This document shows, one piece after another, positions 38,712 to 64,000 of a stretch of DNA of 64,000 bases. The notes beneath the pieces are model-generated. The model was not told the origin of the DNA. It saw nothing but the letters and a program-made list of their open reading frames with translations, and searched no databases. The DNA is from Schmidtea polychroa (Eukaryota), in NCBI GenBank assembly GCA_044892525.1, contig CM097888.1, forward strand, positions 28,024,001-28,088,000, written 5' to 3'. Numbering within the stretch: position 1 is the first letter of the stretch; every line of letters begins with the position of its first letter. The translations under genes and the position numbers were made by a program.

Positions 38712-39250
38712 TGTTGGCGTATGTGGAGAAGAAAAAAAATTATACATGCCTTTCCATCACACCTATCAAGCATCCTGGCTCCGTTATACATTTTCTACAC
38801 ATACTCCAAATGATTGATTGCATATTCCCACATATGAGCCCATGGTGATGTTCCATGTTGGTGCTGCTCACACGGGTCGGAAAAGGTTAGCAGGTGAGCC
38901 CCTGCCTTAGGACTACTCCTAACCCTTTCTCAGTTCGGGTCCCACGGTGCCTTAGAAGGACTTACCCATATACATGCGTGTCACTCGGTCTGATCCTGGT
39001 CCAAAGGAACAACCTTCAACCTTAATTATCTCCATTCCGCAGCATTATCTCATCTACTCTAATTGCGCAAACAAATATATGAAAGCTCGACAAAACTAAA
39101 ATCAAACAGAAAATTTTATTGACACTGAAACGATAAAAATATCATTACTACTAACAGATCAACAACAGTCAAAAAGATATAACATTAGCAACATTCACGA
39201 GATAATTTACAACTCAATGAAGAGGAAATCAAGCTCAATTTTACATCACA

Positions 39251-40012
39251 TTAAACAAAGTTATCCCCATCGGCCAGTATCTCATCTATGTCGACCGGTA
39301 ATCGGCTATCTACAATGTATTTGATGCCCTCAGCTGGAACAATGCGGAAGACTTCCTTTGAGGGGATTGAATGGGAGGACGTTATCTCTTGGATTTTTGA
39401 TTTCGCCGCCGATAAGGACGTCTCGAGTGCTGTCATCGCATCTCGGCGTTTTTGGTTCTTCTCGGCTCGAGTTGGCCGTTTCCGTTTGCGGGTAGTCGGG
39501 GGTTTTTCGGTGTTCGTGGTACCGATTGGTGCTACCAAGATTGGAGCTACGATGGGATCAGTAGGTCCACCTATCTTTGGCTGGTGACATGACAACACCG
39601 GGGGTGGAATGGGCGGCAGTTGTGAGCCGTGCCCCTGGCAGTGCGAGCCGGAAGATGTAGGAGACGGGTGGTGACGAGGAAAGACATTCGTCCCATCCAG
39701 AACGGGGAATTCTCGCACCCGCTTAGCCAATTCTGCCTCCGTATATACCTTATGGAGGGCTTCTGACTGTGCTTTGATGGTGAGCCGCTGACAACGGCTT
39801 TCCTCTAGCAGGCTGTCCCTGCAATGCTCTAATCGGAGAATTTTCTTGCGTTCCTCTTTCATTTGTGGCGGGGAGAACCACGTTCCTTCATAGAGATCAA
39901 TTCTCTTTTTGAGAGCCCCGATATATAAGTGGAGTTGGGCGATATCCGCGTTCTTGTCCGCACAAGAAAAACACGGGCGAAGTTCTTTGGCGTTGTTGGA
40001 CGATGTAGCCAT
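39251..40012 (-). CDS. LTR-encoded 253-aa protein of unknown function (CxxC, coiled coil, Pro-rich linker, basic region)
   Basis: Intact ORF; nearly identical protein in the solo LTR despite many synonymous changes. Confidence 0.8.
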   Translation of the reverse strand: MATSSNNAKELRPCFSCADKNADIAQLHLYIGALKKRIDLYEGTWFSPPQMKEERKKILRLEHCRDSLLEESRCQRLTIKAQSEALHKVYTEAELAKRVREFPVLDGTNVFPRHHPSPTSSGSHCQGHGSQLPPIPPPVLSCHQPKIGGPTDPIVAPILVAPIGTTNTEKPPTTRKRKRPTRAEKNQKRRDAMTALETSLSAAKSKIQEITSSHSIPSKEVFRIVPAEGIKYIVDSRLPVDIDEILADGDNFV

Positions 40013-42418
40013 CTAGAAAATCAATCATTGTTTATATTTACTCGAAGAAACCTCTATCAGTGTGAAGAAAAATCAAATTTTTGGGCATGGTTTTGGAGTT
40101 TGATCAAACATACCACCCAACGATGACCCACACACTTCTTCATCCATCTCTATACGCAGTCATTCAGTTGCAAACATTCAAATCTCTTCACCTGATTCGT
40201 GTAATTTAAGAAAAGGAAACGGGGATTCGTATACCAAAAATTCTTTCTACACAAACCTCGCCCTTTGAGTTTAATTTCGGATGGGCCATTCCCAGGTAAA
40301 ACCCGTCTTTTACTTTATCCCCTTCAACCTTGTTCCCATTAGTATATTTTAATTAAGAATTTTTGCCGATATCATTATGGCAATTCGTCGAGGTAGGCCT
40401 GCCTAACATTACAGAGAAATAATTCACGGCGACGGAATAGATTATTTATGTTTTTATCTCGTTCAAAATTATGGAATTGATCGTGTAATCAGTTGAAAAT
40501 TCAGCTCTAATCTACATCTAATTAATTCCAACAACGCGTCGAAAATCGTCGTCATGGAAAACGTTTACTTGTGATTATGCATTATGATTGACTGTGTAGG
40601 TGTGTCATTACTCCTGGTGGTATCTGTAACTGTATGTTGGCTATCTCCGCGAATGATGGTTTATGCTGTTATGATAAATTATTGTATATCGAGTTGTGTA
40701 GGGGAAATCCATCCCCTTACTTCATCCTATTATCTCGCTATTCTAGAGAAATTTATACCATCATGCCGCTATTACATCACCAAAATCGTTGATTTCCTTT
40801 TACACTGCCCTATGCATATTTGACTGTGGTGCGTGTGTATGTGCATGCTCAAGTCGGAATATTAGCGGTTGCGTAATAGATTCCTCAAATAAGCAGCCGT
40901 AGATGAATCGAAAAATCAGATTAATCAATCTGAGTGGGCGACAACTTCATAGATTATTGGGTAAGCTCAACAATATCATCTAATTTCCTTTTACGATATT
41001 AATTCAGATCAATGACTATCAGCTTATTCATTTGACATTTTCCCAGAAAAGTTAACATGTTATCTCCTTCTCCAGGACGTTATCAGATATCTCCTGTCGA
41101 CTAACTCTACGCAGGCTAATGCAAATCAACTGATTTCGTTATCGTTGACAACTACTGTCTGCGGGCTCGAAGTAAGAATTTTGATAATTTCACTACAAGA
41201 TGTTTACTTCCCTGTCAGCGAGAGATTCTTTATCACTGGCATTGGTGACTCAAGGACGACAATCAAATCGTAAGAGTACATCGACAATGGATGTAGCCGC
41301 TAACATCATGACGGCACAAATCAGACAGAACCTTGTAAACGCAGAGCGTCACCGCAAAATCGTTGGATTTACTTGCAATCTATGGTCGACACCGTTCTTT
41401 CCTAACTACGTCGATTGACCGGCTGAATATCACGAAAAGAATTTTCCTCCTATCTATGTGGATTATCATCGAATCTGTACGAACGTCACTGCCTATCTCG
41501 CTCTGAATTGTCTGCATTCGGAATTCAAATCATCTCTACATCTACTGGGAATCTCGATTTAACTAAATGAACCGATGGTACGCTCTACAGACGATCGCGC
41601 TTGATGAAGGAACGGTCATTTATTAACTGGATGTTCCACCTACTGAGTTTCTTCACCCCTCACGACACACCCAAGAAGGCATTCATTGCTGCCACCTCCT
41701 TGCACCGTCATGAGGGACCAATCAACTCTTTTCCATTCAATCAAATCAACAATATAATAATCAAACTGAATGATAGAAAATGCATAAATAAAATTTACCC
41801 GGCGACCATATCATTTGGATCTCCGAGTATGATGTTGCTCCTCCTACATGATCGAAACCTCATCGTCTCCTTGGTGGATCTCTAATATGACAAATATCAC
41901 TCTCTACAAATATCACATTCTCTTTTCAGCATGTTCGTGATTTCTTATGCATACCAACCTTTCCACGGTGGTGTCCTCTACTGCAGTGCAATTCCAACTC
42001 GTCCACATCATACTGGGAGCTCTCAGATGGTACAGTCGTCGGTACCATGAAGAAAGGCAACTTTTCATTTAAATAAATTTATTATAAGAAATTGTTTTAT
42101 TATATTTATAATGATTAACTAAATTAAACTAATAACCATAAATAAAACAACTGTCGAGGCATACCTTGAGTTTCGAAAACTGAAGTTAAATCGGTTGAAT
42201 TTAAAATTTTTCCCGAATGGATTTGTAGTTTGGCCTCTATATATTTCTTCCTCGGTTTGGTTTGGTAATCTCTGAACTAGTTCGCTGTAGGATAATTAAA
42301 GATTCCGAAATCTGTCAAGTCTGTAGAAAAATTTTTTAAAAGTGGTCGTATATAACGAACCGAAGTTTACCTGTAGAAAAATTTTTTAAAAGTGGTAATC
42401 TACAGATATTTTCCGTTC

Positions 42419-42442
42419 CTTATATATTATTTTTCGTCCAAT
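42419..42442 (-). promoter_or_regulatory. LTR promoter: inverted CCAAT box plus TATATAAG
   Basis: Conserved in both LTR copies; a ~25-bp direct repeat pair lies just downstream in both. Confidence 0.55.
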
Positions 42443-43176
42443 CAGGACACGACTTGTTTGTATTTTTACTATTTATTATTATTTTTATGTTTTTTATTAT
42501 AATATATTAGATTTTAATGACTTAACTTATTTCCTATTATTATTTTATTTATTTTCTTATTTTTATTATTTTCCTCCTATTTTTCCTGTGGATTTATTGC
42601 TACTTTATTGTAATATAATTTTTTGTTTTAATTAGACTTAAAGATAGTTTTATTTTTTATTTATTTCTTAAATTTCTCTTTTATTTGTTGTCACTTTTTT
42701 ACTTATTTTATTCTATTTCATCTGCTGGGTCCTAAATCGCTTTATTTCTAAATCTCAAGGGGTTTATTGGGTTTTATTTAGTTTGTTTTACTTATTCTTA
42801 TTCTCTTATTGATATTTTATTGTTCCTTTTTGATTTATTAGCGAGAATTTGATGGTACTTTATATTTTTATTTTATTTCGTTTATTTTTCAAGGATTACT
42901 TTTCTATTCGCTCCAGTTTTCGAAACTCCACGTTTTAGCCCAACAAATCACTCCGGGGCCCGTTAAAATTGCGCCCCGCAATTCACATAATATCATACGT
43001 TTAACTCATACCTTTTTTCGGCATAACAACTAATTTCACGGTCAACATTCACACAAACATAAAATTAAAATAACTAAATAATACTTTAATTAAACAGATA
43101 AAAGGACAAATATAAGCAAGCAGTGGCCACTTTAGGTGACCGGATTTATACACACAAAGTTTATGAATGGTCGATG

Positions 43177-43803
43177 TCACATGATCTCAAGGTTCGGAAT
43201 GTCTTGGTTGGTTGAATTCTGGGTCGGATGGCTGGTTGAAGTTGTTATCGTGGGGAGCTGGATTGTAACAGGCATTTGGTCAGGAGATAGATTTTGTTGC
43301 ATTTGGTCGGGTGGGTTTGGTTGTTGAAAATATACTGCTCGTTTATGTTTATTTTTCGATCGTGGGTTCTTTCTTTCGTGTTTCTCGGATAGTGACTGGT
43401 TTCTTCTCCATGTTCGATGAATATCATACGCTTTCCAGATGACTAGTGCGCAGATGATAAGAGTTTCACTGATGGTAGTATAGAGTAAGACTTGGCTTTC
43501 TTTTACTTCCTTCTTCATGATGATTTCCTTCAAGGATTGTTGGGTGGTTTGTTCTTGTAAGAGAATTTCGAGCTGTTCGATTTTTTGGGTTTGTAGGTGG
43601 AGTTGCATTTGAAGTTTTTGCCAGACGGCTTTGTTCCAGCATTGTTTCGGGATGTTGTTGGAGAGCTTTCTTTCGCTTTTCAGTTTGGTTAACGGGTTTT
43701 GCTGTTTCTCGGGATTCTCCCAGAATGTTGGGATTGGCTGCCACATGGGTATTCCGTTTATCGCTATCATCATTATTGTCACCAGGGTTGCTCCGAACCA
43801 CAT
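43177..43803 (-). CDS. Accessory ORF, predicted type-I membrane protein (208 aa)
   Basis: N-terminal hydrophobic signal MWFGATLVTIMMIAING; TM LLYTTISETLIICALVIW followed by a basic and then Q/P/T-rich tail. Confidence 0.65.
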   Translation of the reverse strand: MWFGATLVTIMMIAINGIPMWQPIPTFWENPEKQQNPLTKLKSERKLSNNIPKQCWNKAVWQKLQMQLHLQTQKIEQLEILLQEQTTQQSLKEIIMKKEVKESQVLLYTTISETLIICALVIWKAYDIHRTWRRNQSLSEKHERKNPRSKNKHKRAVYFQQPNPPDQMQQNLSPDQMPVTIQLPTITTSTSHPTQNSTNQDIPNLEIM

Positions 43804-43858
43804 ACTACTATACGAAAATTTTTATTTACAATTATTTACATTGATCATTCATCTTTAA

Positions 43859-44560
43859 TTATTGCCGGGTTTTCTTTTTACGGGTTTTCTCGGATGTTCT
43901 CATCACTCTCGTTTCTGCTTTTATTACTCGTTTTCTCAATTCGGGTAGTACTTTTAATTGTTTGTCTCTTTCGTCTAACTGTTGCCTTAGGGTTATTATT
44001 TTTTCTTTTAGTGCTTTTATTTCTTGTGTTGCTCTTTCGAGGTTTTTATGGTTCATTATCTGTAGAAAATCATTTTCCCTTTCCCCGTCTTCTTCGTTGT
44101 CTATTTCCTGGTATTTGTTGTTCATTCGTCTCATTATCTCACATTCTTTCTGTTTTTGGTGTAGTTGGAGTTGTAACTCTTTCAGGCTTTCTTGGTGTTT
44201 CCGTGCCTCGGTTTTCCAATAGTCACTAATCACTTCGTCGGCCTTTCGACTGGCCCTCTCCTGCCATAATTCTTCCGCGATCTTTTCCCAATTTCTCCCT
44301 CGCTTTCTTTGCTCGTGAAGCCATTCGTTTTCTTTCTCTACTTCTTTCTTTACTCCTTCTAACAAGATATATTCTCTTTTCAATACTTTAATCCTTTTTC
44401 GATTATCTCTCCACCTTTCAACTAATCTTTCGTTTTCCTGTCTCTCTTCTTGTAATTCTTCCTTGATAGTTTTCTTCCTCTCCACTTCATCAACTTCAAT
44501 TTCTCCCTCTTCTAACTCGATTATAGATGTTATGCTGGGTTGTCCGTTTTCAGTGTTCAT
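43859..44560 (-). CDS. Accessory coiled-coil protein (233 aa)
   Basis: Intact ATG ORF, E/K/R-rich heptads, same A-rich strand bias as the polyprotein. Confidence 0.7.
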   Translation of the reverse strand: MNTENGQPSITSIIELEEGEIEVDEVERKKTIKEELQEERQENERLVERWRDNRKRIKVLKREYILLEGVKKEVEKENEWLHEQRKRGRNWEKIAEELWQERASRKADEVISDYWKTEARKHQESLKELQLQLHQKQKECEIMRRMNNKYQEIDNEEDGERENDFLQIMNHKNLERATQEIKALKEKIITLRQQLDERDKQLKVLPELRKRVIKAETRVMRTSEKTRKKKTRQ

Positions 44561-44734
44561 TTTCTATAATATATACATAATTAATAATTGCGCTACAGTG
44601 CGGCTTATACTTATACATTTATATGTTATTTTATAATCAGGGTTACAGTCCCTTTCATACTTTTACTGTACCATTAATTTTTTTGGTTGGGATACAGGTC
44701 CCGATTTTTATATTTTTTATCTTTCCTTTTATCT

Positions 44735-45772
44735 TTATACAAAGGTCTCTTCCTGGCCTACATATCCCTCATCGCTTTCTACTGACGTTTGTAATTGGAG
44801 TGCGATGGGATCAAATGGGATGTAGTACCGGGGAATCTGCGCTCTAAGTTCTTGCACTTCGTCTCTTAGTGCTCTTGACACGTTAAGTTCCTCGTCCAAC
44901 AGGTATGTTAGATACCTGGTTTCATCGTCTCTTACCTCTATCTGTTTTTCTAGCTCTTCCGCTTTTTCGCCGTTTTCCCATTTCTTGATCTCTATCTCCA
45001 GATTTTTAAGATTTTCGTTATACATTTTCCTTTCGTTTTCTAACTTTTTGTTTTTCCCCGCCAGTACCATATTTCTCTGCTCCAGAGCTCCTTGGTATCC
45101 GTTGACATCTCGTTCTAGTTCTGCGACCTTATTCACCAGTTCCACGAGTCGTCCTGACTGTTGAAGTATCAGTTCTTCCATTGCGGCATTCTCGTGCTCC
45201 CTTATGGAGATTTTCATGGCTAGATGTCTTTCAAATTCCATGGCTTTGGTCTGCCATGTTTGGCTTCGGGCCGCAATCTTTCTGAGCCGTTTCAGTTCTT
45301 CTCTCATGACCAGATTTTCCTCCCATTTGCCTTGTTCGCTTTCGTATTCTAATCTCATAGGCAATTCTTTCATTTCTTTTTTCATCTCTTTGTTCTGCCG
45401 CTTCCAGTTTCGGGCTTCTGCCAATAGGTGATTCATTTTCCTTCCTTCCTTTTGTTTTTCTGCTTCTCGTTTTGTGTTTTCGTCCGTCAATCGTTTCCGT
45501 GCTTCCTGCACTAACTGTTTTAAATAGTGGCTGTGCGCTTCTTGGCGAGTGTTTTCCAATGATGCCCACTTAGAGGCTCTTTTGCATGCTTCTGCTTCGG
45601 CTCTTAAATTGTTTACTAACCACTGATATTTGTTATTCTCGTATTCCCTGGCCTCTTCGAGATGGTTGTGGGTCTGGTTCGTCAATTGTAACATTACTTT
45701 GACCCATTTTCCCTTATGGATTTTATTGACTTTGGTTTCGTGGTTTGGGGCTTCAGTTCCTTCTTGTGTCAT
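44735..45772 (-). CDS. Accessory coiled-coil protein (345 aa)
   Basis: Intact ATG ORF, long heptad-rich helical sequence. Confidence 0.72.
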   Translation of the reverse strand: MTQEGTEAPNHETKVNKIHKGKWVKVMLQLTNQTHNHLEEAREYENNKYQWLVNNLRAEAEACKRASKWASLENTRQEAHSHYLKQLVQEARKRLTDENTKREAEKQKEGRKMNHLLAEARNWKRQNKEMKKEMKELPMRLEYESEQGKWEENLVMREELKRLRKIAARSQTWQTKAMEFERHLAMKISIREHENAAMEELILQQSGRLVELVNKVAELERDVNGYQGALEQRNMVLAGKNKKLENERKMYNENLKNLEIEIKKWENGEKAEELEKQIEVRDDETRYLTYLLDEELNVSRALRDEVQELRAQIPRYYIPFDPIALQLQTSVESDEGYVGQEETFV

Positions 45773-45992: not shown

Positions 45993-47381
45993 CTACTCAG
46001 TCCTACTCTTCCCGTCTCGCCTCACCGCTATTTTCATGTATATAGTGTCGTTTCTCGTCATGTCTTCTACTTTCCGCTGTAGGATGAAATTTGGTGCTCC
46101 AGTTGCTGGTCCTTCTTCTTCCAAGGGCCTTTGGTAACATACGAGGTTTCCCGCTGTATGGAAACTCTGTTCGTGTATACTTTGATAGTTCATCATTGCG
46201 AGGTCTATTTTTGCTTTGAATGGCCATTCTATTAACTCGTCGTATGGCCCTTTGCACATCAAGAAGAATACTGAGAAATGCGTTCCGTATGCACTTCCAT
46301 CCCCATTGGGGTATGCTTTCATTTTCATTTTATACCCGTTTTTCCATGAGTAGAATGCTGGACTTAGTAATGTTGTATCCTTTCCATTTCTCGCTCTCTG
46401 CATCTTCTCTTTTACTCCCGTTATTTTCCATATGTACGGAGCCGTAGGTATTAATTCGTTGAGGTTTAATTCGCTTACTTTTTGATGTAGTTCTTTCACC
46501 ATAATGTTGCTAGTTTCTACTAGATCTGTCTGTATCTTTGTACTTGTTCTCGCCTCTTCAAATGCTTCCTTTTCTTCCAATAGTTCTTTTACCAACGCTT
46601 TTAGCGAGACTATTTCTCTTTCTAAGTTTTCGGTTTTCCTTTCGTTTTCCTGTAATACCGTTGACCATATTTCCGCGTGTGTTGATACGTTTTCTGCTAG
46701 ATGTTGGGGTAATTCCCCTCGGTGTAATTGTTTCGGACATCCCCATTTTCCTAGCACACACGTTATCTTTTTTCTTTCACACTCTTTTAGATGTTGAGCG
46801 AGTTTTATTACTCCGGGTTTATCGCATTTGTTGGGGCATTCTCCTCTGAATTCTGCGCACACTTTCTCCTCTTGTATGTTGTGATGTTGACTGATTAGTT
46901 TCTTCCAGGTGTCGTTTTCTCCGCAATACTCGCATTTCTCTAGTCTTTCTTCGCATCGACTTTGATGTTCTGCTTCTTCATTGACTTTAATCTCTTCTTG
47001 GCAACGTTTGCATTGACTGATTTTATACTCACATTGCTCCATATGTTGCCTCACTTCCCATATCACTCCTCGCCAATTACATGGGGTGTTTTTACATCCT
47101 AGGTTTGCATTCAACATATCTTTTACAGCTGCTTTATCTTCGTTTGTATCTCCCAAACTTGTTATCATTGTTTCTTTGCATACTGGGCACCATTGTGGTC
47201 CCTTCTTTATTATCTCCTCTACACATTCTCTGCACATTCTGCATCCACATCTGGTTTGGTGAGGTTCTCTTAATAAGCTCTTGCATATTCCACACGTTAC
47301 ATGGTTGTGTATTCGAATTGTGGTGGACTTTCTGATTTGTTCAACAATTTCTCTGAATTCTTCTCGTTGTCGCTTATCCAT
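45993..47381 (-). CDS. Intronless TRAF-family protein (RING, TRAF zinc fingers, coiled coil, MATH), 462 aa
   Basis: CGICKSLLREPHQTRCGCRMCRECV..CPVC; zinc fingers HMEQCEY..CKRC; MATH YIWKI..SPAFYS..GYKMKM..YPNGDG..GTHFSVFF..KGPYDELIEWPF. Confidence 0.95.
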   Translation of the reverse strand: MDKRQREEFREIVEQIRKSTTIRIHNHVTCGICKSLLREPHQTRCGCRMCRECVEEIIKKGPQWCPVCKETMITSLGDTNEDKAAVKDMLNANLGCKNTPCNWRGVIWEVRQHMEQCEYKISQCKRCQEEIKVNEEAEHQSRCEERLEKCEYCGENDTWKKLISQHHNIQEEKVCAEFRGECPNKCDKPGVIKLAQHLKECERKKITCVLGKWGCPKQLHRGELPQHLAENVSTHAEIWSTVLQENERKTENLEREIVSLKALVKELLEEKEAFEEARTSTKIQTDLVETSNIMVKELHQKVSELNLNELIPTAPYIWKITGVKEKMQRARNGKDTTLLSPAFYSWKNGYKMKMKAYPNGDGSAYGTHFSVFFLMCKGPYDELIEWPFKAKIDLAMMNYQSIHEQSFHTAGNLVCYQRPLEEEGPATGAPNFILQRKVEDMTRNDTIYMKIAVRRDGKSRTE

Positions 47382-47470
47382 TTCTATAATTATATATATA
47401 CATATATTCGTTACTGGTACAGTTTCGTATTTTTATTTACATTTATTTACATTGCTATTTTAGGTTATAT

Positions 47471-53900: not shown

Positions 53901-56900
53901 GTAACATCGCATGCTCCCAAATCTAAATCCGAAATTGCGAATATATCTTTATATTCTATCAATAATTGTTGAAGTCTCTCCTTTTCTTTTTCCGTTAGCA
54001 AGGTGCTATCAATTATCCATAATTCGTCCGCTTTCGTTGTTTCGTTGGTGATTTTTGGTAATTCGATGTCTATCATGGGTGTCAATCTACCCAATCTTTC
54101 ATTTTCATATATGATCTTGTCTTCTTCCTCGAAATTTGTGATGTTAATTGGTATTTCCCCGTCTTCATTTATTGTTATTATTTCTCTTGCTAATGGTAAT
54201 TCTCGTCGTTTTTCGAATGATTTGCTTGGCTCAAAAATGACTTCTCCTTCCATTCCTGCATCCACTTTTATTTGACATATCATCTGTGATTTTGCGGGTA
54301 CAATTATTTTCTCCGGACATCTAATTATTGCGTTCATCTTGCATATTCTACCCATTTTGTCTTTTAGACACATTGTTGTTAAATCGATTACTACTTCCTT
54401 AAACAATTCCGGCATTAAATCCGTTCCGATTATACATGGTTCACTCAGTTTGGGTATCACCGCTAGATACGTTTCAATTTCGTTATCCTGATATCGTAAC
54501 GTAGTCCACCATCTTCCTACTACGTCTACGGTTTCTTTACTGCATGCAATAATATGGATAGTTGTTTGTTCGATATCTTTCCAACATTTACTGGGTATTT
54601 GGTTTATTGCTATTGCTGATACGTTTGCTCCGGTATCTATCATTGCGCTTGTCTCTTTCCCGTTGATTTGGATCATGACTGTTACTGCCGCACCTCCTGG
54701 TGAACTCATCACTGCTATCGTTCTTACGTCGTCCGCTTGGTCTACACTTTTCGTTCTTCGGGTCGGCATATAGTTCATCCCTGGTTGACTTGGTAACTGT
54801 GGATACATATTTTGTGTCATGGTCAAAGCTGTTTGTTGTCCAACGATATCTGGTGGTATATAACTTCCGTTGGCTATCCAGGTATTTGTTTTTTCTTTCT
54901 CCCAATATGGTGCTGTTTCTATTGGCTTTTCATTCGGGTTTCTACTTGGATATGGGTATTTGTCATTCCCGTTGTCGTCATCATCACTATCGCTGCTGTT
55001 TGATCGATTCCTAAATCTGTCTAAGAATTTTGGTTTGTTCTTTTTCAGTTGCGTCCTTGTTGCTTCATCATACATTGTTTTCCGAAATCGTCTACCGACT
55101 TCCTCGTCAGTTCCTTTTATTTTTGTCAGTATTTTGATCAATCGTTTTATTCTATGTATGTCTTTAGAATGACCGTGCAACACCATTGTTTTTGCCAAAA
55201 ATGGTAGAAAGCCTACTATCAATTTCCAATTTACCTTCTTTTCTCTCTTATAGATATCAAAACACGCTAACATTTGAGTCAATATTACTCTAACTATCTG
55301 GATAATAAGAATGATTCCCAATATTCCTGCCATCATTTGACCGAACACTAGAAATCTTCCCCACATTGCTTTCATCATGTTTGACGTGGCTTGTTGAAAA
55401 TGATCAGGTGACAATAATAGTTCGTAATTGGGGCCTGACTGGAAATTCGTTCCCCCAGTTATGGTAACCATATTCGATAGAATGGATTCCCGTCTTGCTG
55501 GGAATAATACGTTTAATCGTGCCGTTTCTAAATCCTCTGGTGAGTACATACCTGCTTTTGACACATCAATTGGTTTGAAATCTTGTTCTGTTGCGAGTTC
55601 TATTAGTCCAAACTTTTTAGGCTCTTGTACTTCGGTTTTTACTGGTAACATTATCCATTTCCCATCGGGTTTTTCATATAACGGTCCGTATGCATTTGAA
55701 CAGTTAAAGGTGTTCGGATAAAATCCAATTGGGTTCATGATTCGAGTGACGGGTTGAACGAATCTGTTTCGCCCTTTGTAACTAATTTCCAACTCGTTTG
55801 CGCATTTCCCTGGTGGAATTGTGGGCTTTCTTGGCAGTCGCGCAAATGTCTTGGTACATGCATATGTATACATTACCTCTCCCACCATTCTACCAAAATG
55901 TCCATCCGGTAACGGGAGTGATGGCATTGTGTTATCTGGGTGTGTTATTGCGATGGCTAATTTTGTTTTTAGTATCTCTTTATTCAATGAACAGTCATTT
56001 TGTATAAGATCGTAATACACTTTTTGCATTGTCGTTTGTCCTCGGTGGAACAAGAAGTCCATCTTATTATTGGCATACAGGTACAATTTTACGTCCTCCG
56101 TTGCTACCTTTCCCACTGCTCGGTCTATTACTTGCCTTGACATGTAGATACCTGCGTAGTTCGTCCGGTATACTATACTGTCACATTTGGTGGTCTCTTT
56201 TTCTCTAATGAATCTCATGCCGATGTCTGGATCATCGGTAATTAATGCCGTTGGTGTTTTTTGGGTTGTGAGTCTCTTTTCTTTGGGGGATGGCGGAACT
56301 GGTTTCCCATTTCGCATCCTTACGTTTCCATTCTCTTCATCGTCATCCTCGTTTTCGTAAATTTCTCCTTTTACTTCATTGAATAGAGCACTTTTTAACA
56401 ATTGGAGTCGGCATTTTTGGGTGTTAGCTTCATATATTATAGTCGAAATCCCCGTTCTACACACGTTTTCCGTAGCTCTGCATGCTGGGTTGGTTTTCAT
56501 TTGATAGTTGTTTGCGTCGAATTGTGCTTCGTATTCCTTCAACTCCACTGTGTAGGACTCAATTACTACTACTCCTGATATCACCTCTCCTCTGATCGTA
56601 TATGTGCCTCCGTTACATGATCCATCCGTTGATTTTACTCGTCCGGCTACATAGATACTTTCCGTCTTGATCATTCCGCTTTGTCCGTGTATTGTTACTC
56701 CATCCCTGATTCTCATCGCTCCGGTTCTAAAAAGCTCTTTACAGTCTTCCCGTTGTATAGGTACTATTTCTTTATCTAATCCAGGTAATATGAGGGTTGA
56801 ATATGAGTATTGTCCACAGTAATATGCCAACACTTTCTTCGATACTACGCATTCTCTAGCTTGCGTTCTAATGAAATCTGATTCTTGGTATACGTGATAG

Positions 56901-59900
56901 GAGACTTTCTTTTTTACTATATCTAATTTATTCGGAGACGCCTGTCTACATTCCTCTATATCTCTCAGGGAGTATCTTTCTCCTATTATCGAATTGTCAC
57001 AGTCGTAAATAGTAAATCCCGCGGCTCCACTGGTGCAGAGCATCCATATCATCATGGTCATCATTAGTGAATTAATCGACGCTTTTCTGCTGGCTGGGTC
57101 TTTCAATGGCAATTCCCATTCTAGCTTGTTTAGTAATTTCTTCAACCGAATTTGCATTGATCTCTCTTGCTCGTTTTTTCGTGGCGCTTGTATGAGTCTT
57201 TTCCACCCACCGGCGCGGATAATATGTGGTTCGATTGTATTTTCGATGATTGTAACGGTCATTTCTACATGATTTGCGAATTGTTTGTTAGGTATTTTCC
57301 TCGCTGCTAATCCCATCAAATTGTACATTAGATACGTTAATACTACTAAATGATGTTCGTCGTCGTTTGCGTTTAAAGTTAATTGTTCAATTACTCTTCT
57401 TGTCTCTTCCCAATCGGTTTTAGTGGTTTTTGTCTTCTCTTTGATTAATTTCGGAATTATTCCGGATATTGTATTCCATAGTTGTCTGGCGTCTACGCTT
57501 GCTACTTTTCGTTGCCATAACCGTCGCAATTGTGGGTTCGTTATTATTAGCATATCTTTTACTAGCTCTCGTATCCATTTTTCGCCTCTTTCGATAGTTG
57601 GCTGGGCCTCTTTTAGATCCCACACTATTTTATCCAGTTTCTCTAATCTGACTTGTCCTTGTTCTTGTTTCAGTTGTTCTCTAGTTTTAAATTCCGGTTT
57701 TTCTCCTTGCTTCTTGGGTCTCCCTTTTGCCCGTTTTTCCATCATTGTTCCGGCTTCCCTTGTATTTTCATAATTCGGGTTTCTCTCGTTATCCGTTCTT
57801 GGCAATGAGCTATCGTTGTTTCTCAGCCATTCGTTCCATTCGTCTATTATTTTGTCCGTTTGACCTTCTGGTGTTGCTTTCGTTGGTCCTTTCTGTCGTT
57901 GGAATTGTTCGTCGGTTTCGGTTTCTGTTGTATTATCGATAATCTCCTCGATACTCAGCTTATTTGGCTGCTGATAGCTAGTTGACGGTTGGCTTGTTGT
58001 CCATATTTCGGCTCCTGTCGGCCATCTTACCAGAATTGGTGATCTTTCTCCAGCTCCTTCATCGCTGTCTTCCAATATAATTTCCTCGATTTCCTCGGTT
58101 TCATTCGTTTTACTTGCCACTTTGTTAGGGCTTGGTGTACTCAAGCTACCTTTCGTAGGTTTACTGGATTTGCTCTTCCTTTTAATCGGTTTTCCCAATG
58201 TTTCTGCCATTGTCAATACATTGATCTCCCCCAATCTCATGGGTGTTATTCCGACATCTGCATTATCATCCAACGATTTTCCGAATAGTTGTAGGTGAAA
58301 TGGAGTTTCGTATGCTAATTTCTTTTTTAACTCTCTGATCTTTGTTGTTGGATGTACTTCTGTATCCTCAATGCTTTTGTCGGGATACTTGACTCGGATA
58401 CGATACCTTTCCTGGGTATCTTGTGCCCATTCTTGGTTTCTCCATTTCCTAATAATTTGTTCTAGCTGTTCTGGGTACCATTCGTTATATTGTCTGTATT
58501 CCTCAATCGCTTTCGCCATTTCTCTTAGATTGTGGATATTCTCTGATGTCTTTAGGATGATGTTAGCCAATGCTATTACTTGACGTTTTTGATTTTTTGT
58601 TCCCGTTGCTAAGATATCACCTAATTGTTTATATCTTTCCTTCTCTTCTCGTTCTCGAGCTTCCATCGCTTCTTCGCTGTCCATATCGGCATATTCGCGT
58701 TCTTTCTTTCTCATCGCATGAATATGTCTGGTTTCCGTTTCACTTTCTGATGTAACATCCGTTTCGCTTTCGTCGTCCGATGTCGATTCTATTTCGTCCT
58801 CTTCGTATTTTGGAGGTTCATCTTCCTCTTCTTCTGATTCGCTTTCTATCTCACCAATGTCTGTTTCCACGAAAATCCCTTTCCTGATTTCCCATTCTTT
58901 GTTTTCCGCATTCCACGTCCTTTCCCATGGGGTTCGTCTGCAGGATCTAACACTTAGTTTCTTTATTTTTCCTTGAAGCTCTTTTTCTTTTAGCCACTGT
59001 TGATGAATTTCAATTATCTCTACTGATTTTTGATATAGCGTTTTCATCCTGTCTCGTATTTCTTTCTGGTATGTTATATCTCTTGTTCGGAATTCGTCCA
59101 TGGGCAATATTCTGATGATTTGATGATTATCCCACATTCCCATTTCGCTTAGCGAGGTGTCGTCTTCGGCCCGTAATATTATTTTATCGTACATCATGAC
59201 TACGTCATCTATCATCCCGTCGCTACTCTCGCTTCGTACTTTTTCCGTTATCTCTTGGTTTATCTTGGTTACTAAGTCATCCACCGTACTCTGATTACTC
59301 ATCTTTATTCGTCGTTTCTCCTCGTTTGGTAACCATATGGTTATTTCTAATTTCTGCGGTTGCGTTTCTTTCAACCTTCCATATTTGTGGATCAAATTTA
59401 TGGTTCTCCAATCGCTCATCCTGAGCAATTCTGTATCTCGTAATCGGCTCATTAGTTCATGCATGTCTGGAGTTCGTCTTGCTATGAGTAAATCCCAGTT
59501 ATCTTCGACTTGTTCTTGAATTTGTTTGATTAATTTATCTAGATTTCGTCGCAAGGTGCATTGTTTTATTTGTTCCAGCTTCAGCTTGATGTTAAAATCA
59601 TACTCGGCCTTGGCGTCTTTAGCCCATTCGTGAATATTTGCTGGTTGCTTCTCTTTATACAATTTCAATATTTGAGTTTCTCCTGGCCAGATCAATGCAT
59701 CTATTAGGTGCATGTCTGGCTTAATTTGTTCTCCTTGATATTGATATAAATACTCTTTCTTTCTCGAGCTGCCCAAATGTTCTCTTATCCAATCAAAAAG
59801 CTCGTCTGTGACTGCATTTTTTATCCATATTCTCTCGAGTCCTTTACTCGTTCCGATTTTTATTACATAGCGTGTTGTCTCCGCTTGTTTCATTTTTTCC

Positions 59901-62425
59901 ATATACTTCTTTATTATCGCTTTTTCCTCGTTTGGTATTAGATCTTTTTCGTTTCTTTCTAGTTTCATTATCTTTTGTAAGAAGCGTTTATATGGTATAA
60001 GGTCGATGAACTCCTGGTTTCTTACTACTACTGGAAGTATTTCCTTTACTTGTTTTATCGCTTCTTCTCTTTCTTTTCTCAATTTCATTTCGATATTCTC
60101 GTCTTCGCTTTCGCTTGTCACGTCGCTTTCTCTTTCATCCTCATCTGCTCCGATCTTTTCTCTTAGTTGGTCGATATTTTCATTTAACTGTAACATTTCT
60201 CCACCAAGGCTACTCACATAATCCTCATCGTCATCTGTTGACAACACCTTCTTTGTTGTCCTCATCATATTAATTCGTAAATTTTTCATTCTTGGTACTT
60301 TCTTTAACTTTTTGTTCTCGAGTATCGTTAGCTCCTCTGAGTCTAATTCTCGTATCATATTATGCTTTAGATGATTAATCTGTTTTCCATTTTCGTTATT
60401 TTCTGCTTCTGCTTCTGTTTTTGTTTGCTCATTTTCTCTTTCGATTTTATCTTTTATCTTTTTCCAAAATATTTTCTGAATTCTCTGATTTCCTTTTAGC
60501 GGTGTTGTTGAATTTTCCTTTTTTGCTGCTGGAATTGTTTCTTTCGGTTTCTCTGGTTCGCTCATAGGTACAACTCTTGGATTTTTACCGTAATTGTAAC
60601 AATATTGCTCCTTTATCTCCTTTACCATCCTCATCATATTTATTCGTAGTGGTTGTTCTTGTCGCTGCTGAATTCGCTCTCTTTTTATCCTTTCTTCTTC
60701 AGCTTGTAGTCTTTGCCATTCTTGTGCATGTTGTTGCACTTCATAATTGTTAAGATTCTCGGTGCTTCTCATCATGCGTATATTCTGGGTTTGTTGTGGT
60801 ACTTGCTCTTGTCTCGGTCTCATCATTTGTTGCATCATCTGCTTCATTTGTGAAATTTCTTGCATCACATTCATTTGCTTTCCCTCACTAGGATTACTTT
60901 GTCGTTGCGGATTTGGTGCATAGTTATTATTTCGCTGTGGTGGTCGTTGCTGTTGGCTCCTTTCTCGACAGTCTCTTGAGATATGACCTGGTTGCCCGCA
61001 GTTAAAACATCCTCTCGATTGGCATATATTTTCCGTGTGTCCTCGTCGTCCACACCTATTGCAATTTGCGTTTCGGTAACAATCTCTATCCCAATGTCCT
61101 GGTTTACCGCATGTTCGGCATTGTTTGTTATCGTTCATATTTCGTCGATTATTAAAGTTGTTCCCATTGTTTGAGTTGTTGCGTTCACTGTTATTCCCGT
61201 TTGATCGTCCTTGTGGTGGTTTGAAAATTTGATGCGCACCTGGTATAAACTGATTCATCTTTGGTTCATGATTATTGTTATCTCCATTTTCCGTTTTCAC
61301 CGCTGCTGTTGCGATTCTTCCTTCCTCCTGCATGACATTCATTTGTGCCGGGAGGTGTAGTTCGCATCTTGTGGCCCAATCTATAGCTTCCTCTAGTGTT
61401 TTACACATTTGACATCCCACCGAGGCCCTTACCTCTTCTCGGCGTAGTCCTTCTATGAAGTACCCAATTAAGTTTTCCTCCGGCAAGTTTCCGTTCATGG
61501 CCTTCTTTGCCAATCTTCGCAATTCACTTGCGTATAACGTAATTGACTCGTTTGCTCTTTGTTTTCTACTTGCCAGTTCACCTAACGCTTGATTTATCGG
61601 TTTGCTGGCTCCGAATGTTTTTCTCAAGAATGTTTTGATGTTTTCCCAATTGTCTAATTTCGTATTTCTTTCTTTTGCTTCCAGATACACTTCGAGTGCG
61701 CTATCGCACAAAAACAGAGGCATTCGTTTACTAATTGCTTCGGATGTCCATCCACACACATCGATATAGACTTCAAAATTGGTTATGAACGTTGCCAACT
61801 TGTTCGCATTCCCGTTGAACGGTTCGCCTCTAAATTTTTCTTTATATTCGTCGGTTTTTGCTACATTCATCTTGATTGGTTCTTGAAATGCTAAAATTTC
61901 TTTTAAATTTTCTAATGATGTAGCTAAATTATGGACGGATAATTCTTCTGTTGACCCGGTTAGGTTGTTTGTTATATCGGATAGACTTTCTCTACTTCTA
62001 GATCGACTGGGCGTATGTCCGGCTGTGGGGTTTTCTTGATCGTATATCGGTGTTTTGTGGGGTCTTTTTGCTCCTTGTGATATTCCTCTCTGCTGCCTAA
62101 ATGATCGTCCTCTTTTGAGTTGATCTAATTCGTCTCCTGAAAATAATACGTCTCCTGGCTTACTTGAAGATCTAAGGTTGGGTTTATCCGTGATTTTCCT
62201 TTTACTCTTTTCTGTCTTTTCACGTGGATTTTCTACGGTTAGCGTCTGCTGAATTGGTCGAGTTCGGTTTTGATATTGTCTTCCTTTGTGCGGGTTCTGA
62301 ATTGCTTTTCCTGGGTTGTTTGTATATTCTCTGGATTCCTCTTGAGCTGGTTCTGAATTGACTTGGTTGGATTGATGTCTACAATGAAAATATGATATCG
62401 TGTTGCCTTTGCTTACACGAATCAA
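47999..62425 (-). CDS. 4808-aa Gag-Env-Pol-ankyrin polyprotein
   Basis: Gag MHR-like RKQRANESITLYASELRRLA; 3 CCHC knuckles (~60965-61130); glycoprotein from 57016; protease IDTGA (D at 54637); RT YIDD (53419); RNase H (~53010-52620); integrase HHCC, D-D-E and GPY; ankyrin repeats; terminal TM. First ATG is at 61870. Confidence 0.95.
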   Translation of the reverse strand: MIRVSKGNTISYFHCRHQSNQVNSEPAQEESREYTNNPGKAIQNPHKGRQYQNRTRPIQQTLTVENPREKTEKSKRKITDKPNLRSSSKPGDVLFSGDELDQLKRGRSFRQQRGISQGAKRPHKTPIYDQENPTAGHTPSRSRSRESLSDITNNLTGSTEELSVHNLATSLENLKEILAFQEPIKMNVAKTDEYKEKFRGEPFNGNANKLATFITNFEVYIDVCGWTSEAISKRMPLFLCDSALEVYLEAKERNTKLDNWENIKTFLRKTFGASKPINQALGELASRKQRANESITLYASELRRLAKKAMNGNLPEENLIGYFIEGLRREEVRASVGCQMCKTLEEAIDWATRCELHLPAQMNVMQEEGRIATAAVKTENGDNNNHEPKMNQFIPGAHQIFKPPQGRSNGNNSERNNSNNGNNFNNRRNMNDNKQCRTCGKPGHWDRDCYRNANCNRCGRRGHTENICQSRGCFNCGQPGHISRDCRERSQQQRPPQRNNNYAPNPQRQSNPSEGKQMNVMQEISQMKQMMQQMMRPRQEQVPQQTQNIRMMRSTENLNNYEVQQHAQEWQRLQAEEERIKRERIQQRQEQPLRINMMRMVKEIKEQYCYNYGKNPRVVPMSEPEKPKETIPAAKKENSTTPLKGNQRIQKIFWKKIKDKIERENEQTKTEAEAENNENGKQINHLKHNMIRELDSEELTILENKKLKKVPRMKNLRINMMRTTKKVLSTDDDEDYVSSLGGEMLQLNENIDQLREKIGADEDERESDVTSESEDENIEMKLRKEREEAIKQVKEILPVVVRNQEFIDLIPYKRFLQKIMKLERNEKDLIPNEEKAIIKKYMEKMKQAETTRYVIKIGTSKGLERIWIKNAVTDELFDWIREHLGSSRKKEYLYQYQGEQIKPDMHLIDALIWPGETQILKLYKEKQPANIHEWAKDAKAEYDFNIKLKLEQIKQCTLRRNLDKLIKQIQEQVEDNWDLLIARRTPDMHELMSRLRDTELLRMSDWRTINLIHKYGRLKETQPQKLEITIWLPNEEKRRIKMSNQSTVDDLVTKINQEITEKVRSESSDGMIDDVVMMYDKIILRAEDDTSLSEMGMWDNHQIIRILPMDEFRTRDITYQKEIRDRMKTLYQKSVEIIEIHQQWLKEKELQGKIKKLSVRSCRRTPWERTWNAENKEWEIRKGIFVETDIGEIESESEEEEDEPPKYEEDEIESTSDDESETDVTSESETETRHIHAMRKKEREYADMDSEEAMEAREREEKERYKQLGDILATGTKNQKRQVIALANIILKTSENIHNLREMAKAIEEYRQYNEWYPEQLEQIIRKWRNQEWAQDTQERYRIRVKYPDKSIEDTEVHPTTKIRELKKKLAYETPFHLQLFGKSLDDNADVGITPMRLGEINVLTMAETLGKPIKRKSKSSKPTKGSLSTPSPNKVASKTNETEEIEEIILEDSDEGAGERSPILVRWPTGAEIWTTSQPSTSYQQPNKLSIEEIIDNTTETETDEQFQRQKGPTKATPEGQTDKIIDEWNEWLRNNDSSLPRTDNERNPNYENTREAGTMMEKRAKGRPKKQGEKPEFKTREQLKQEQGQVRLEKLDKIVWDLKEAQPTIERGEKWIRELVKDMLIITNPQLRRLWQRKVASVDARQLWNTISGIIPKLIKEKTKTTKTDWEETRRVIEQLTLNANDDEHHLVVLTYLMYNLMGLAARKIPNKQFANHVEMTVTIIENTIEPHIIRAGGWKRLIQAPRKNEQERSMQIRLKKLLNKLEWELPLKDPASRKASINSLMMTMMIWMLCTSGAAGFTIYDCDNSIIGERYSLRDIEECRQASPNKLDIVKKKVSYHVYQESDFIRTQARECVVSKKVLAYYCGQYSYSTLILPGLDKEIVPIQREDCKELFRTGAMRIRDGVTIHGQSGMIKTESIYVAGRVKSTDGSCNGGTYTIRGEVISGVVVIESYTVELKEYEAQFDANNYQMKTNPACRATENVCRTGISTIIYEANTQKCRLQLLKSALFNEVKGEIYENEDDDEENGNVRMRNGKPVPPSPKEKRLTTQKTPTALITDDPDIGMRFIREKETTKCDSIVYRTNYAGIYMSRQVIDRAVGKVATEDVKLYLYANNKMDFLFHRGQTTMQKVYYDLIQNDCSLNKEILKTKLAIAITHPDNTMPSLPLPDGHFGRMVGEVMYTYACTKTFARLPRKPTIPPGKCANELEISYKGRNRFVQPVTRIMNPIGFYPNTFNCSNAYGPLYEKPDGKWIMLPVKTEVQEPKKFGLIELATEQDFKPIDVSKAGMYSPEDLETARLNVLFPARRESILSNMVTITGGTNFQSGPNYELLLSPDHFQQATSNMMKAMWGRFLVFGQMMAGILGIILIIQIVRVILTQMLACFDIYKREKKVNWKLIVGFLPFLAKTMVLHGHSKDIHRIKRLIKILTKIKGTDEEVGRRFRKTMYDEATRTQLKKNKPKFLDRFRNRSNSSDSDDDDNGNDKYPYPSRNPNEKPIETAPYWEKEKTNTWIANGSYIPPDIVGQQTALTMTQNMYPQLPSQPGMNYMPTRRTKSVDQADDVRTIAVMSSPGGAAVTVMIQINGKETSAMIDTGANVSAIAINQIPSKCWKDIEQTTIHIIACSKETVDVVGRWWTTLRYQDNEIETYLAVIPKLSEPCIIGTDLMPELFKEVVIDLTTMCLKDKMGRICKMNAIIRCPEKIIVPAKSQMICQIKVDAGMEGEVIFEPSKSFEKRRELPLAREIITINEDGEIPINITNFEEEDKIIYENERLGRLTPMIDIELPKITNETTKADELWIIDSTLLTEKEKERLQQLLIEYKDIFAISDLDLGACDVTLHAIPLIDETPIALRPYKLAEKQKEIAEAEVQKMLDAQVIEPSCSPWQFPVVMVKKKDGTQRFCIDYRKLNAVTKRDTYPLPDINEMLLMLQGAAYFTSLDLKSGYWQIKVKEEDKEKTAFTLGRDLYQFRKMPFGLTNAPASFQRCMNFVTHGIKQCMVYIDDLLIYSATFEQHLEDIRNVFVRLRQWKLKLKPSKCDWAKEKVTFLGHIVSAKGKEPDPRNIEKIKTCPAPKTVTQVQEFLGLCGYYRKFIKNYAGIAKPIQELVKKDISFIWGAEQQKAFETLRDKLIEAPILVHPDFKKPFLLATDASGYAAGAILGQLDEEGKERVIGYYSRTFKKHEKNYSVTEREALAIIQAIKHFRYLLWGHEICITTDHQPLVWLGQHKEASSRLMRWAMQLQEYSPFIKFKAGRANANADCMSRFIFPDLVDHEMQRICLMVAEDLDFCQLRKDQQEDTELKQIIEYAKTGKAEVYEKDQKLKEHMDKHRHRYIIEKDWLLIMDGEKRLMCIPENRRKDLLTQYHDGRLGGHMSSKKTLARMKQKYFWPTLTEDVTEWVKNCITCATRKNTGTKWKAPLKPMPVPAEPMTMISMDVVGPLPESDRGNIYILVITDYLTKFPEAFAMADQKARTIAKILVEEICCRYGTPKQILTDQGTNFMSEIMSEVTNYFKIAKLRTSPYHPQTNGMTERFNGTLIQMLSNYVDRHQRDWDEYIKLCLMAYRMSIHASTKMSPFKLMYGRECNMPMDLEYQPPISQYMEIDDYVTKFKERMQEIWETAGLNIKFYQESYKELHDRKKNVKQHTFQTGDWVMIETPELIPGTTKKLQRNGKGPYEILFVGETNVRVRLVNNPFTRPIYVNVARCKPIPKTATSQPEGRTLTTRSQTYRINMLQQINEPTGNRLGLQPSEAEKIIKEVKVKMPGWAEDRLDFEILGGLLTMIENYANRERTHPLLRVVKSQWPILFTITDHYGDTPLHKLLKVGSNEQILETIEAFRDCNISTDQENNQGYTPLMIAANRDKAKDIIIALLETGSKITTQDHNQKNALHHAIEGKSTEAFIILVDLLSYEDNREIGNMYDGLLTAIKEKLITITGILIAWRNPIKNDYMVDINETFTKGENTLMREAMRGHHLFEIPNQLLQRGIKFSNHKDEQLIRKRIINFEKAISQFTDKVQVKFWETVNVLYMMENMNNIRETYLSIIQVLTAEERINNSNKKKIKRKKVKARESEEQVDQPITDIATTSKPKTINSDQEIVVRKAKEVFFEEMQDLSDEAILAKITKTVHTYARDQTTNLDIGKIKTFIPLAFTLPTKDSRTPLQQAILAAKENRAITIIRILRDFGEESNAKNEQGETAMMYAAITNIHPKTLHILHRSGSRLDEISNEGNSAMDWATIQPNLEMIRFICKNATRTEVENICKNTSQFQWNTIRMNLEAMKLLLTWRIPQSNKYAININEFYENGENAMVKNTLTKGGTPKIIMIVLNREDLKFTQNLNEQKRIGKHRRIQLRELVKEWNRKRHVATGRKEFELEAKLARNRVLTAYRRLLNDINVEDDIINDSGGDKDDKDDDNNEKSRNGNKEKEKSEENNQENNDASRKKEENNPRNRIKQEEKTNSGKQRVCLLFTNKEMETNMMIMILVLTMVEMITAQGGMRTIKEAKETENKDNKEEELKQEKKKQVQEQQWDLKEEWDLKERCILGRCMSRAYQRLVLKNEDAEPITEVRIQEAYRNREGKRITKVKGKEVHLGKGGEVVITQLQPRKEHKVCIARLRPGEDCLQYVIQQQPPKEYTICIWRKDTARECRRYPGKRGKKRKIDDEKDEQGKRKKNSEKHQDNYVSEEEMEKIQKMAKEGMNEEIARIRGMMKGNGKDGNLKSTEAISTITSKEKAEIISIKQMMWISGIIITGAFLIITGGTIKIIKDRRHHGELEMARIRNFQHRVKRPSNIKQEQWVEAWNAQRPPSSRI

Positions 62426-63089
62426 TCATTCCTTTTTGCCACATTCAAGCACAGACACCGTTTTAGGGCCTCTGTTATACTTCTCTTCATTTCCCCTCAT
62501 ACACTTCTTCGCGGAATATAATTACCCATCAACCCATATTTTTCGTCGATTTTAAATTATCTACTTGGGGTAGTAACAATTATCTATATAGTCGTATAAA
62601 TTATCTATAGTTAGCATTTATAATATCGATAGGTCGTTGTCAGTTACTGCTTATTACCTCCCATATTTTCTTAATCCTTTTACGCGGTTCCGCTATTTTA
62701 CTTAATCTTTCATCTCTGTTTCCCCTTATTTGGTTCTACTCTGTAACCAAAACAAAATTCGTTTAACCGGTTTAAACCAAAAAAATTCTGTAGAACTTTG
62801 TCTACTTATCTGGGATCCCTTTTAATTAATTAATCACCTTCCTCTTTTACTCATCACTTATTCTTTATTTTCATTATCTCTTTAATTCATTTTCCTTTTC
62901 AGTTTCTCTTTCTCACTGAAAAAAAAATTTCATTATTACCTCCCACGAGCTCGTTTAATCCTTTCTAAATTCAAATACCATATTTCAAACTCACTTTGCT
63001 TCTAGCTAGCTTTAATATTCCATCTCACTAGTAATTTAAATGTTATCAACTTGTAGCTTGAATGCTATCTCACTATTACTTTAGGCCTT

Positions 63090-63440
63090 TACGACTGGCT
63101 GGCACTTTTCAACAGCTCAATCTTCTTCTCCTGACCGGTTGGACTATTCAACAACTCGATCTTACGACTGGCTGGCACTATTCAACAGCTCAATCTTCTT
63201 CATCTCCGAACTGGCTGGACTTTTCACAGCTCAGTTTTAATTTTTCCTGACCGGCTGGACTTTTCAACAGCTCGGCCTTAATATCTCCGACTGGCTGGAC
63301 TTTTCACAGCTCAGTTTTAATTTTTCCTGACCGGCTGGACTTTTCAACAGCTCGGCCTTAATATCTCCGACTGGCTGGACTTTTCACAGCTCAGTTTCAA
63401 TTTCCCTGACCGGCTGGACTTTTCAACAGCTCGGCCTTAA
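63090..63440. repeat. Tandem repeat in the element's 5' leader (alternating ~39-40-bp subunits with core GAC(T/C)GGCTGGACTTTTC(A)ACAGCTC)
   Basis: About 9 subunits seen directly; the later ones form near-identical ~79-bp dimers. Confidence 0.9.
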
Positions 63441-64000
63441 TGTCTCTAACTCTGCATGCTTCCGTTCCTTTTCTGTCTTTATTCTATACTGTCATCTTCC
63501 TATTTTTACTTTTATTTGTCGACTTAATCTGTACCGCTTTGGAAGGTTTCCCCTTTCCCCCCTTGCTTAAAACGCAAAACGATCGCATTGATCCATTTCT
63601 ACATTGGTATGGTGATCAGCCATACCGCAGAAACTTTTCAATATTCGCGATGGTACCTCGCCTTACATCTCTTACTCGGGGTGATCGGTTGTCCCTTCCC
63701 AAATGGTTCCAATATCGTACCTCCCGAAGGTGGCTCGGTTTATTCCCCCTTTAGCACTATGATGGGACTAGTTCCACTTTAAATAATCAATTTAAATTTT
63801 TAAAATGCCCTTTCTTCATGGTGAAAATTATAACAACACAAATCGATTTATAACTTCGTATAATGAAATGAATGCACAGAAAGGATTTATTAGTTATTTA
63901 CTCCACATTACAGATAATATACGCTATCATTATAAAACATTACCGAATTAATTCAGAACAAAAATATCAAAAATGTTTAATCTAATTGTTAATCATCCAG

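Follow-up and report, generated by a model that had tools for sequence, protein, structure and literature searches.

A probable Burro-type Ty3/Gypsy element of Schmidtea polychroa, intact and very recently inserted, with a predicted gB-type envelope and TRAF, ubiquitin-like and Bcl-2-like cargo

The giant Gypsy elements Burro1-4/GYPSM1 of planarians (Jurka 2007; Grohme 2018) are described in part of a 2019 review (PMC6431247). According to that part, Burro/GYPSM1 is longer than 30 kb and has a 4,873-aa ORF1 with env in frame between gag and pol. Its domains include MATH_TRAF_C, BIR, Smc, ankyrin, BCL2-like, Ubi2/SUMO-like and dUTPase-like ones, and its accessory open reading frames (ORFs) may alternate with polyprotein subdomains. 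The review already proposes a provirus that tinkers with apoptosis and ubiquitin. Elements of GAG-ENV-POL order with an envelope of the glycoprotein B (gB) type are described from Platyhelminthes, Nematoda and Bryozoa in passages of PMC13524379. Here we analysed a 64,000-bp stretch of Schmidtea polychroa DNA (contig CM097888.1, positions 28,024,001 to 28,088,000; the window), in which a giant Ty3/Gypsy-type element of 30,491 bp begins. Judged by its layout and the published descriptions, it is very probably of the Burro type, and its likely way of life is that of a complex endogenous retrovirus with an envelope. The finding itself is no discovery, as published work of 2007-2019 already covers the family, its domain set and the provirus hypothesis. 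Added to the literature are the predicted gB-type fold of the envelope, the selection on the cargo, the loss of BH1, and the TATA box and donor-like site of the long terminal repeat (LTR) with the acceptors. Predicted leader and acceptor sites, a predicted gB-type fusogen and cargo kept by selection make the standing hypothesis testable.

The element lies on the minus strand, as do all of its features given below, and extends from position 38712 to 5.2 kb past the window end, into the next 10 kb of the genome past position 64000 (L001). The 3′ LTR (38712..42945, 4234 bp) has TGTTGG...CCAACA ends, and the 5′ LTR (L001:968-5202, 4235 bp) differs from it by 1 substitution and 1 indel. As is usual for Ty3/Gypsy (Metaviridae) elements, the LTR ends are of the form TG...CA and the target site is duplicated over a short length, here 4 bp (ATGG on the plus strand, 38708-38711). 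The primer-binding site (L001:943-960) is the exact 18-nt complement of the host tRNA-Pro(TGG) with its CCA. The 5′ leader region (63447..64000) continues past the window end into L001, and 40/80-bp tandem repeats of the leader region occupy 63089..63446. All three stretches of assembly N in the window fall outside the element. The original prediction, made from the letters of the window, had placed the element at 38712..64000; its start stands, and its end has moved outwards, since an ORF with a RING domain, the primer-binding site and the 5′ LTR were found in the next 5.2 kb. The insertion interrupts pol of a smaller Gypsy element, which lies on the plus strand (window 34823-38711 and L001:5203-6935) and has a broken pol and LTRs of about 680 bp that are 98-99% alike. 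Elsewhere (L105, G000:C1:130.9 Mb), tRNA-Pro(TGG) genes are arrayed in tandem at intervals of 475 bp; there are 1577 pattern matches genome-wide.

In DNA searches with gag and TRAF, 40 places were scored for each (of 343 and 358 candidates, respectively), all at 98-100% identity. A TRAF place was found 14.4-14.5 kb downstream of 33 of the 40 gag places; the other 7 may have theirs outside the scored list. The junction of LTR and primer-binding site occurs 93 times exactly in the genome. Five further copies, a biased choice from the top matches, were all collinear with the window copy. Their polyprotein frame was open in four (1-2 codons at stretch borders unread) and had one stop in the fifth, while the TRAF frame was whole in four and straddled a stretch border in the fifth; one of the five had no open 233-aa frame. 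The LTR pairs of these copies differed at 1, 1, 0, 0 and 0 positions, and each copy had its own 4-bp duplication. The window element is intact and was inserted very recently, and its family is very young. The recent activity that had been predicted is borne out by the 0-2 differences within the LTR pairs and the 4-bp duplications of the window copy and all five others, and the order of genes that was expected to be shared among copies was recovered in the gag-TRAF pairing and the collinearity. One copy (L056-L059, G000:C3:125.88 Mb) is 98% identical internally and has LTRs of another type (68-86% in aligned blocks), a sign that subfamilies may exchange their LTRs. A solo LTR of the same family, 70-73% identical to the 3′ LTR and flanked by an ATAT target duplication, is located at 16207-20480 of the window; it carries a shortened LTR ORF at 17034-17495.

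The frame 48002-62425 is free of stops over 4808 codons (14,424 nt). The polyprotein ORF (47999..61870) has its first ATG at 61870 and encodes 4623 aa, the frame being open from 62425. It contains, in order, Gag, three ubiquitin-like domains, a Bcl-2-like domain, the envelope glycoprotein (Env), protease, reverse transcriptase, RNase H and integrase (PR-RT-RH-IN), ankyrins and a membrane tail. Retrotrans_gag, zf-CCHC, Monjiviricetes_fusion (E 6.5e-72), RVP, RVT_1, RT_RNaseH, Integrase_H2C2, rve and Ank_2 were found in this frame above the Pfam cut-offs. Gag (60926..61870) has three CCHC knuckles. The enzymes (51296..54679) comprise PR (DTG), a spacer of about 100 aa, RT (YIDD), RNase H and integrase (HHCC, DDE, GPY); the catalytic motifs are intact and the order is that of Ty3/Gypsy (Metaviridae). 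In a comparison restricted to PDB entries, the RT was nearest to Ty3 RT (E 4e-90, versus 1e-34 for the best retroviral RT). The PR-RT spacer is conserved across families and gave no Pfam match at E 1; the 2019 review has a dUTPase-like segment at this place. Two ankyrin-repeat blocks follow the integrase (49436..51058), and the C-terminal region (48140..49000) has two hydrophobic segments, one signal-like and one transmembrane-like. Outside the polyprotein there are a full TRAF and six other small ORFs. The gag/pol, envelope, Bcl-2-like, ubiquitin-like, ankyrin, TRAF, membrane and coiled-coil components, and the stop-free 14.4-kb frame, that had been read from the letters were confirmed in one element.

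Compared with Burro/GYPSM1 as partly described in PMC6431247, the element agrees in size (30,491 bp, a 4,234-bp LTR and 4,808 codons, versus more than 30 kb and about 4,900 aa), and both have LTRs, a polyprotein of about 4,800 codons, a three-CCHC Gag, tandem repeats, ubiquitin-like and BCL2-like domains, an in-frame env, ankyrins, MATH/TRAF and accessory ORFs. The order Gag-Ubl-BCL2-Env-PR with ankyrins after IN is the same, and the MATH/TRAF cargo is represented by a whole TRAF ORF downstream of pol. The predicted link to Burro holds in size, domain order and cargo, and the question raised with it, whether the domain set had already been reported for Burro elements, is answered against novelty, these domains being already listed there. 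The element is not Burro1 itself, which has a MATH inside ORF1 and a BIR; the window element has neither. Its two ankyrin blocks also set it apart from Burro/GYPSM1 as described. In the review's account, MATH is part of ORF1 or, in Dugesia tigrina, of an ORF upstream, whereas the TRAF of the window is a downstream whole gene, and the env is gypsy-Env-like with mononegavirus glycoprotein hits, whereas the window Env is predicted to fold as a gB-type class III protein. The layout published for Burro1 is found in family E of Schmidtea polychroa, a sister of the window element.

Env (55271..57070) lies in frame inside the polyprotein between gag and protease, and consists of an internal signal-like segment, a 554-aa ectodomain with 14 Cys and a transmembrane helix. 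The structure predicted for the ectodomain (pLDDT 89.8) gave HSV-1 gB as its best Foldseek match (E 1e-13), and an Env sequence profile matched herpesvirus gB at E 0.003; a single-sequence PDB search did not detect gB. In the predicted model, the ectodomain has the herpes-gB-type class III fusogen fold. As in gB-type GAG-ENV-POL errantiviruses, it is placed between signal and transmembrane segments and before pol. The signal-like segment directly follows the Bcl-2-like domain in all four families inspected. In a full HMMER search, 1007 env relatives were found, the best being polyproteins with env ahead of the protease, and a word-index search with polyprotein residues 600-2250 found no long homologues. 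According to the passages of PMC13524379, gB-type errantiviruses share with the window element the Ty3/Gypsy pol, the gB-type env, the GAG-ENV-POL order, the signal/transmembrane flanks and many near-identical copies. The main text of that paper lacks the words "Burro" and "accessory" and the passages mention no death or ubiquitin cargo, though its supplements may list the family. One relative, a 2627-aa env-pol polyprotein (P0006), is filed under a Flavobacteriaceae metagenome-assembled genome and is likely animal DNA in the bin.

The Bcl-2-like domain (57176..57643) keeps a BH2-like GGW. The three ubiquitin-like domains (58202..59869) lie at about 58202-58405, 59096-59356 and 59651-59869. 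Single-sequence Pfam matches were weak and below the cut-offs (E 0.024 and 0.02, respectively), and phmmer with a single Bcl-2-like sequence found no Bcl-2 in the PDB. Profiles were built solely from element sequences and then searched against the PDB. The best 60 rows were all Bcl-2/Bcl-xL for the Bcl-2-like profile (best E 1.3e-3) and all ubiquitin-fold proteins for the ubiquitin-like profile (single-domain best E 6e-8). Multi-copy short Bcl-2-like frames, some sharing a TAG, were also seen elsewhere (L035, L036, L037 and L039); no gag, env or pol match was found in the 10 kb inspected at each, and they probably belong to another repeat.

The TRAF ORF (45993..47381) is intronless and encodes 462 aa with RING, zinc fingers, coiled coil and MATH, that is, all parts of a TRAF protein. 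Pfam detected the RING, the TRAF-type zinc fingers weakly (E 0.002) and MATH (E 8e-25), and the best solved relatives were TRAF3/TRAF2. An upstream ORF (L001:29-526) has a C-terminal C3HC4 RING (E 6e-8) and no BIR. Accessory ORFs encode a helical 119-aa protein also present in sister families (47471..47830), charged coiled-coil-like proteins of 345 aa (44735..45772) and 233 aa (43859..44560), and a 208-aa protein with a hydrophobic N-terminus and one membrane-like segment (43177..43803). The LTR itself bears a 253-aa ORF (39251..40012) with CxxC, a coiled coil and a basic patch, and no Pfam match. Large DNA viruses carry Bcl-2-fold, ankyrin and IAP proteins, which are similar host-derived modules. 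The likeness is one of kind, the window element carrying such modules in a retroelement and partly fused to its polyprotein.

A large clustered expansion of host-type TRAF genes was seen in the genome (L066-L089, mostly at G000:C2:110-122 Mb and 4-5 Mb); a planarian TRAF expansion is reported in part of PMC6109357. A MATH tree of 38 rows was made from the 30 best of 150 scored loci (1551 candidates) and 8 chosen sequences. In it, 22 clustered host-type loci make up a separate clade (100/99), and support is weak (76/73) for a grouping of the element MATHs with two tandem genes of the host type. The tree does not support an origin of the host expansion from element TRAFs.

The layout of the window element is shared by a sister family (RT 97%). 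The frame of family E (RT-RH 90% identical, grouped 100/100) is 4,791 codons long and encloses a MATH; a whole TRAF and a BIR+RING gene lie downstream of it. Gag, Bcl-2-like domain, signal, env and pol are kept in three families with RTs about 50% alike, and public proteins also show env before the protease. The ratio of nonsynonymous to synonymous change (dN/dS) was calculated pairwise by Nei-Gojobori against one sister-family copy; codons unaligned or in windows below 50% identity were dropped, at most 24/253 per region. It was 0.00-0.06 for gag and the pol enzymes, 0.05 for env (0.01 within the family), 0.04 for the Bcl-2-like domain, 0.01-0.05 for the ubiquitin-like domains, 0.04-0.05 for the ankyrins, 0.10 for TRAF and 0.11 for the RING ORF. 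The 208-aa, 233-aa and 345-aa ORFs gave 0.27, 0.08 and 0.05 (the last with dS near saturation). Between LTR types the LTR ORF had dN 0.12 and saturated dS, the protein being kept. Every measurable cargo ORF is under purifying selection (0.01-0.27).

Three signals in the LTR are conserved in 4/4 LTR types of the family and not in family E, namely a TATATA box at LTR position 520 (42421..42426), a splice-donor-like CAG|GTAAA at position 576 (42364..42373) and AATAAA at position 863 (42078..42083). The copy of TATATA in the 5′ LTR would be the working promoter, and the donor is predicted to end a short leader exon. AATAAA is a candidate poly(A) signal, in which case U5 would measure about 3.3 kb. 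The LTR types also have in common two more conserved donor-like sites and several more AATAAA. A YAG lies at most 6 nt before the first ATG of 15/20 small ORFs from three families (6/7 in the window copy) against a background of 21-25%; the three families are related, so that the ORFs are not independent. TATA, donor and acceptors suggest a spliced-mRNA programme, and leader splicing is the probable mode of expression judging from these motifs. Contigs from four runs, two of them guessed to be RNA, cover 44001-64000 and give expression evidence neither way. Among the papers listed on trans-splicing and planarian retrotransposons, none on Burro splicing was found.

On these data we propose the following model. 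Transcription would start near the LTR TATA, and the short leader would be spliced to the acceptor before each small ORF, while unspliced RNA would be packaged. The hydrophobic segment before Env and the closing transmembrane helix predict the topology of insertion into the endoplasmic reticulum (ER): the polyprotein would enter the ER at the internal signal segment, leaving Gag-Ubl-Bcl2 cytosolic and membrane-tethered and Env in the lumen, and the Env helix would return PR-RT-RH-IN-Ank to the cytosol. The chain would be cleaved by signal peptidase and PR, and the resulting enveloped particles could enter other cells, presumably stem or germ cells. The TRAF, RING, ankyrin, ubiquitin-like and Bcl-2-like products would act in the producing cell, where they would damp down its death and its TRAF/ubiquitin signalling. 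Judging from the predicted proteins, cell-to-cell spread has a slightly better than even chance, and a host-signalling role for at least some cargo is fairly likely; the infectious agent of the original prediction, manipulating cell death and innate immunity, repeats the proposal of the review. It is a doubtful extension that Burro elements are infectious complex retroviruses of an invertebrate, evolved apart from the vertebrate ones. About seven accessory genes, one of them within a 3.3-kb U5, would then be expressed by leader splicing; the membrane topology would resemble that of flaviviruses, with Gag and a Bcl-2-fold protein held to the membrane by the Env signal; plus strands would be primed in a non-canonical way; and an exchangeable set of TRAF, IAP and RING genes would rewire the death signalling of planarian cells. 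Should infectivity and death suppression prove true, an abundant endogenous virus would act on apoptosis in animals studied for their stem-cell-based regeneration, and element-borne TRAF and Bcl-2-like ORFs would need separating from host genes in planarian annotations.

Several observations, given in this and the next three paragraphs, weigh against the model. The element is known here from its sequence and from predicted structures. In the 255 nt inspected before the 3′ LTR no polypurine tract was found, which is a usual and not a diagnostic feature. A GC-rich self-complementary motif precedes the LTR there (42946-42985) and is common to family E (L093:2781-2815). According to passages of PMC8532177, BURRO1 transcripts are under PIWI control, and BURRO1 RNAi left the smedwi-2 phenotype unchanged in the model planarian. 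In the parts of the literature searched, including PMC8532177, PMC11410931, PMC13238120 and PMC8797187, no study of Burro particles or cargo function was found.

The Env ectodomain has no furin-type site (R-x-R/K-R), which fits retrotransposition inside the expressing cell only, with Env serving for budding at internal membranes and particles that do not infect. One frame also gives a one-to-one output of Gag, Env and Pol, unlike most infectious retroviruses, and infection data were not found in the literature searched. However, the gB-type ectodomain is complete with its cysteines conserved, the env dN/dS is very low both within the family and to the sister, and, according to passages of PMC13524379, conservation of the furin site varies among gB-type Env proteins. 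An intracellular life of this kind is a real but lesser possibility.

The Bcl-2-like domain gave a poor predicted model (pLDDT 51). Bcl-xL came first in Foldseek with a best E of 0.09 and a TM of about 0.35, none being under 0.001, although 19 of the first 20 rows were of the Bcl-2 family. The BH1 motif NWGR of anti-apoptotic Bcl-2 proteins is replaced in 5/5 element rows, so that binding in a BH3 groove cannot be assumed; judged by its sequence, the domain is Bcl-2-like in fold only. In addition, the linkers (dN/dS 0.02-0.10; gag-Ubl 0.10, env-PR 0.02) are as constrained as the domains; the selection is therefore evidence that the proteins are of importance to the element, and it does not point to host modulation in particular. 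The loss of BH1, the constraint on linkers and the fixed place of the domain, which immediately precedes the Env signal even where RTs are only about 50% alike between families, would suit a role in the element's own assembly. The ubiquitin-like, Bcl-2-fold, ankyrin and RING/TRAF modules would then be scaffolds for membrane targeting, budding or shielding of Gag from degradation, with little effect on host death or immunity. Such a role is rather unlikely, as TRAF is a complete separate gene and family E has, in addition, an IAP gene with BIR+RING and a second MATH, a recurring death/immunity theme.

As to expression, 5/20 small ORFs have no acceptor, and the family E LTR does not align, the donor not being seen there. 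The small ORFs could instead form an operon-like cassette, expressed through spliced-leader (SL) trans-splicing with internal 3′-end formation, or from internal promoters. Their spacers measure 55-220 nt. According to passages of PMC12582326, spacers below 300 nt are in the range of candidate operons of flatworms, and SL trans-splicing occurs in planarians. TGTA[AT]A occurs at most 45 nt after 11/12 stop codons, versus 22/561 background windows and 3/31 host-type MATH genes, but the motif was picked from these same spacers and its enrichment is not an independent test. The donor conserved 56 nt after the LTR TATA box favours cis-splicing from a short leader over SL trans-splicing, and the operon-like arrangement is improbable.

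A chimeric assembly, or a chance juxtaposition of host genes and a retroelement, is ruled out for practical purposes by independent collinear copies with different target duplications, the 93 exact junctions and the same order in sister families; the original prediction had named such a chimera, or full-length copies lacking these domains and ORFs, as what would speak against it, and neither was observed.

Other features of the window lie outside the element. Inverted arms of 116 nt (73%) at 23704-28473 enclose two transposase-type ORFs, one of the Tc1/IS630 type (23879-25042, minus strand) and one of the hAT type (26612-27865, plus strand). A host exon at 5497-6387 (minus strand) matches the winged-helix domain of GTF3C1.

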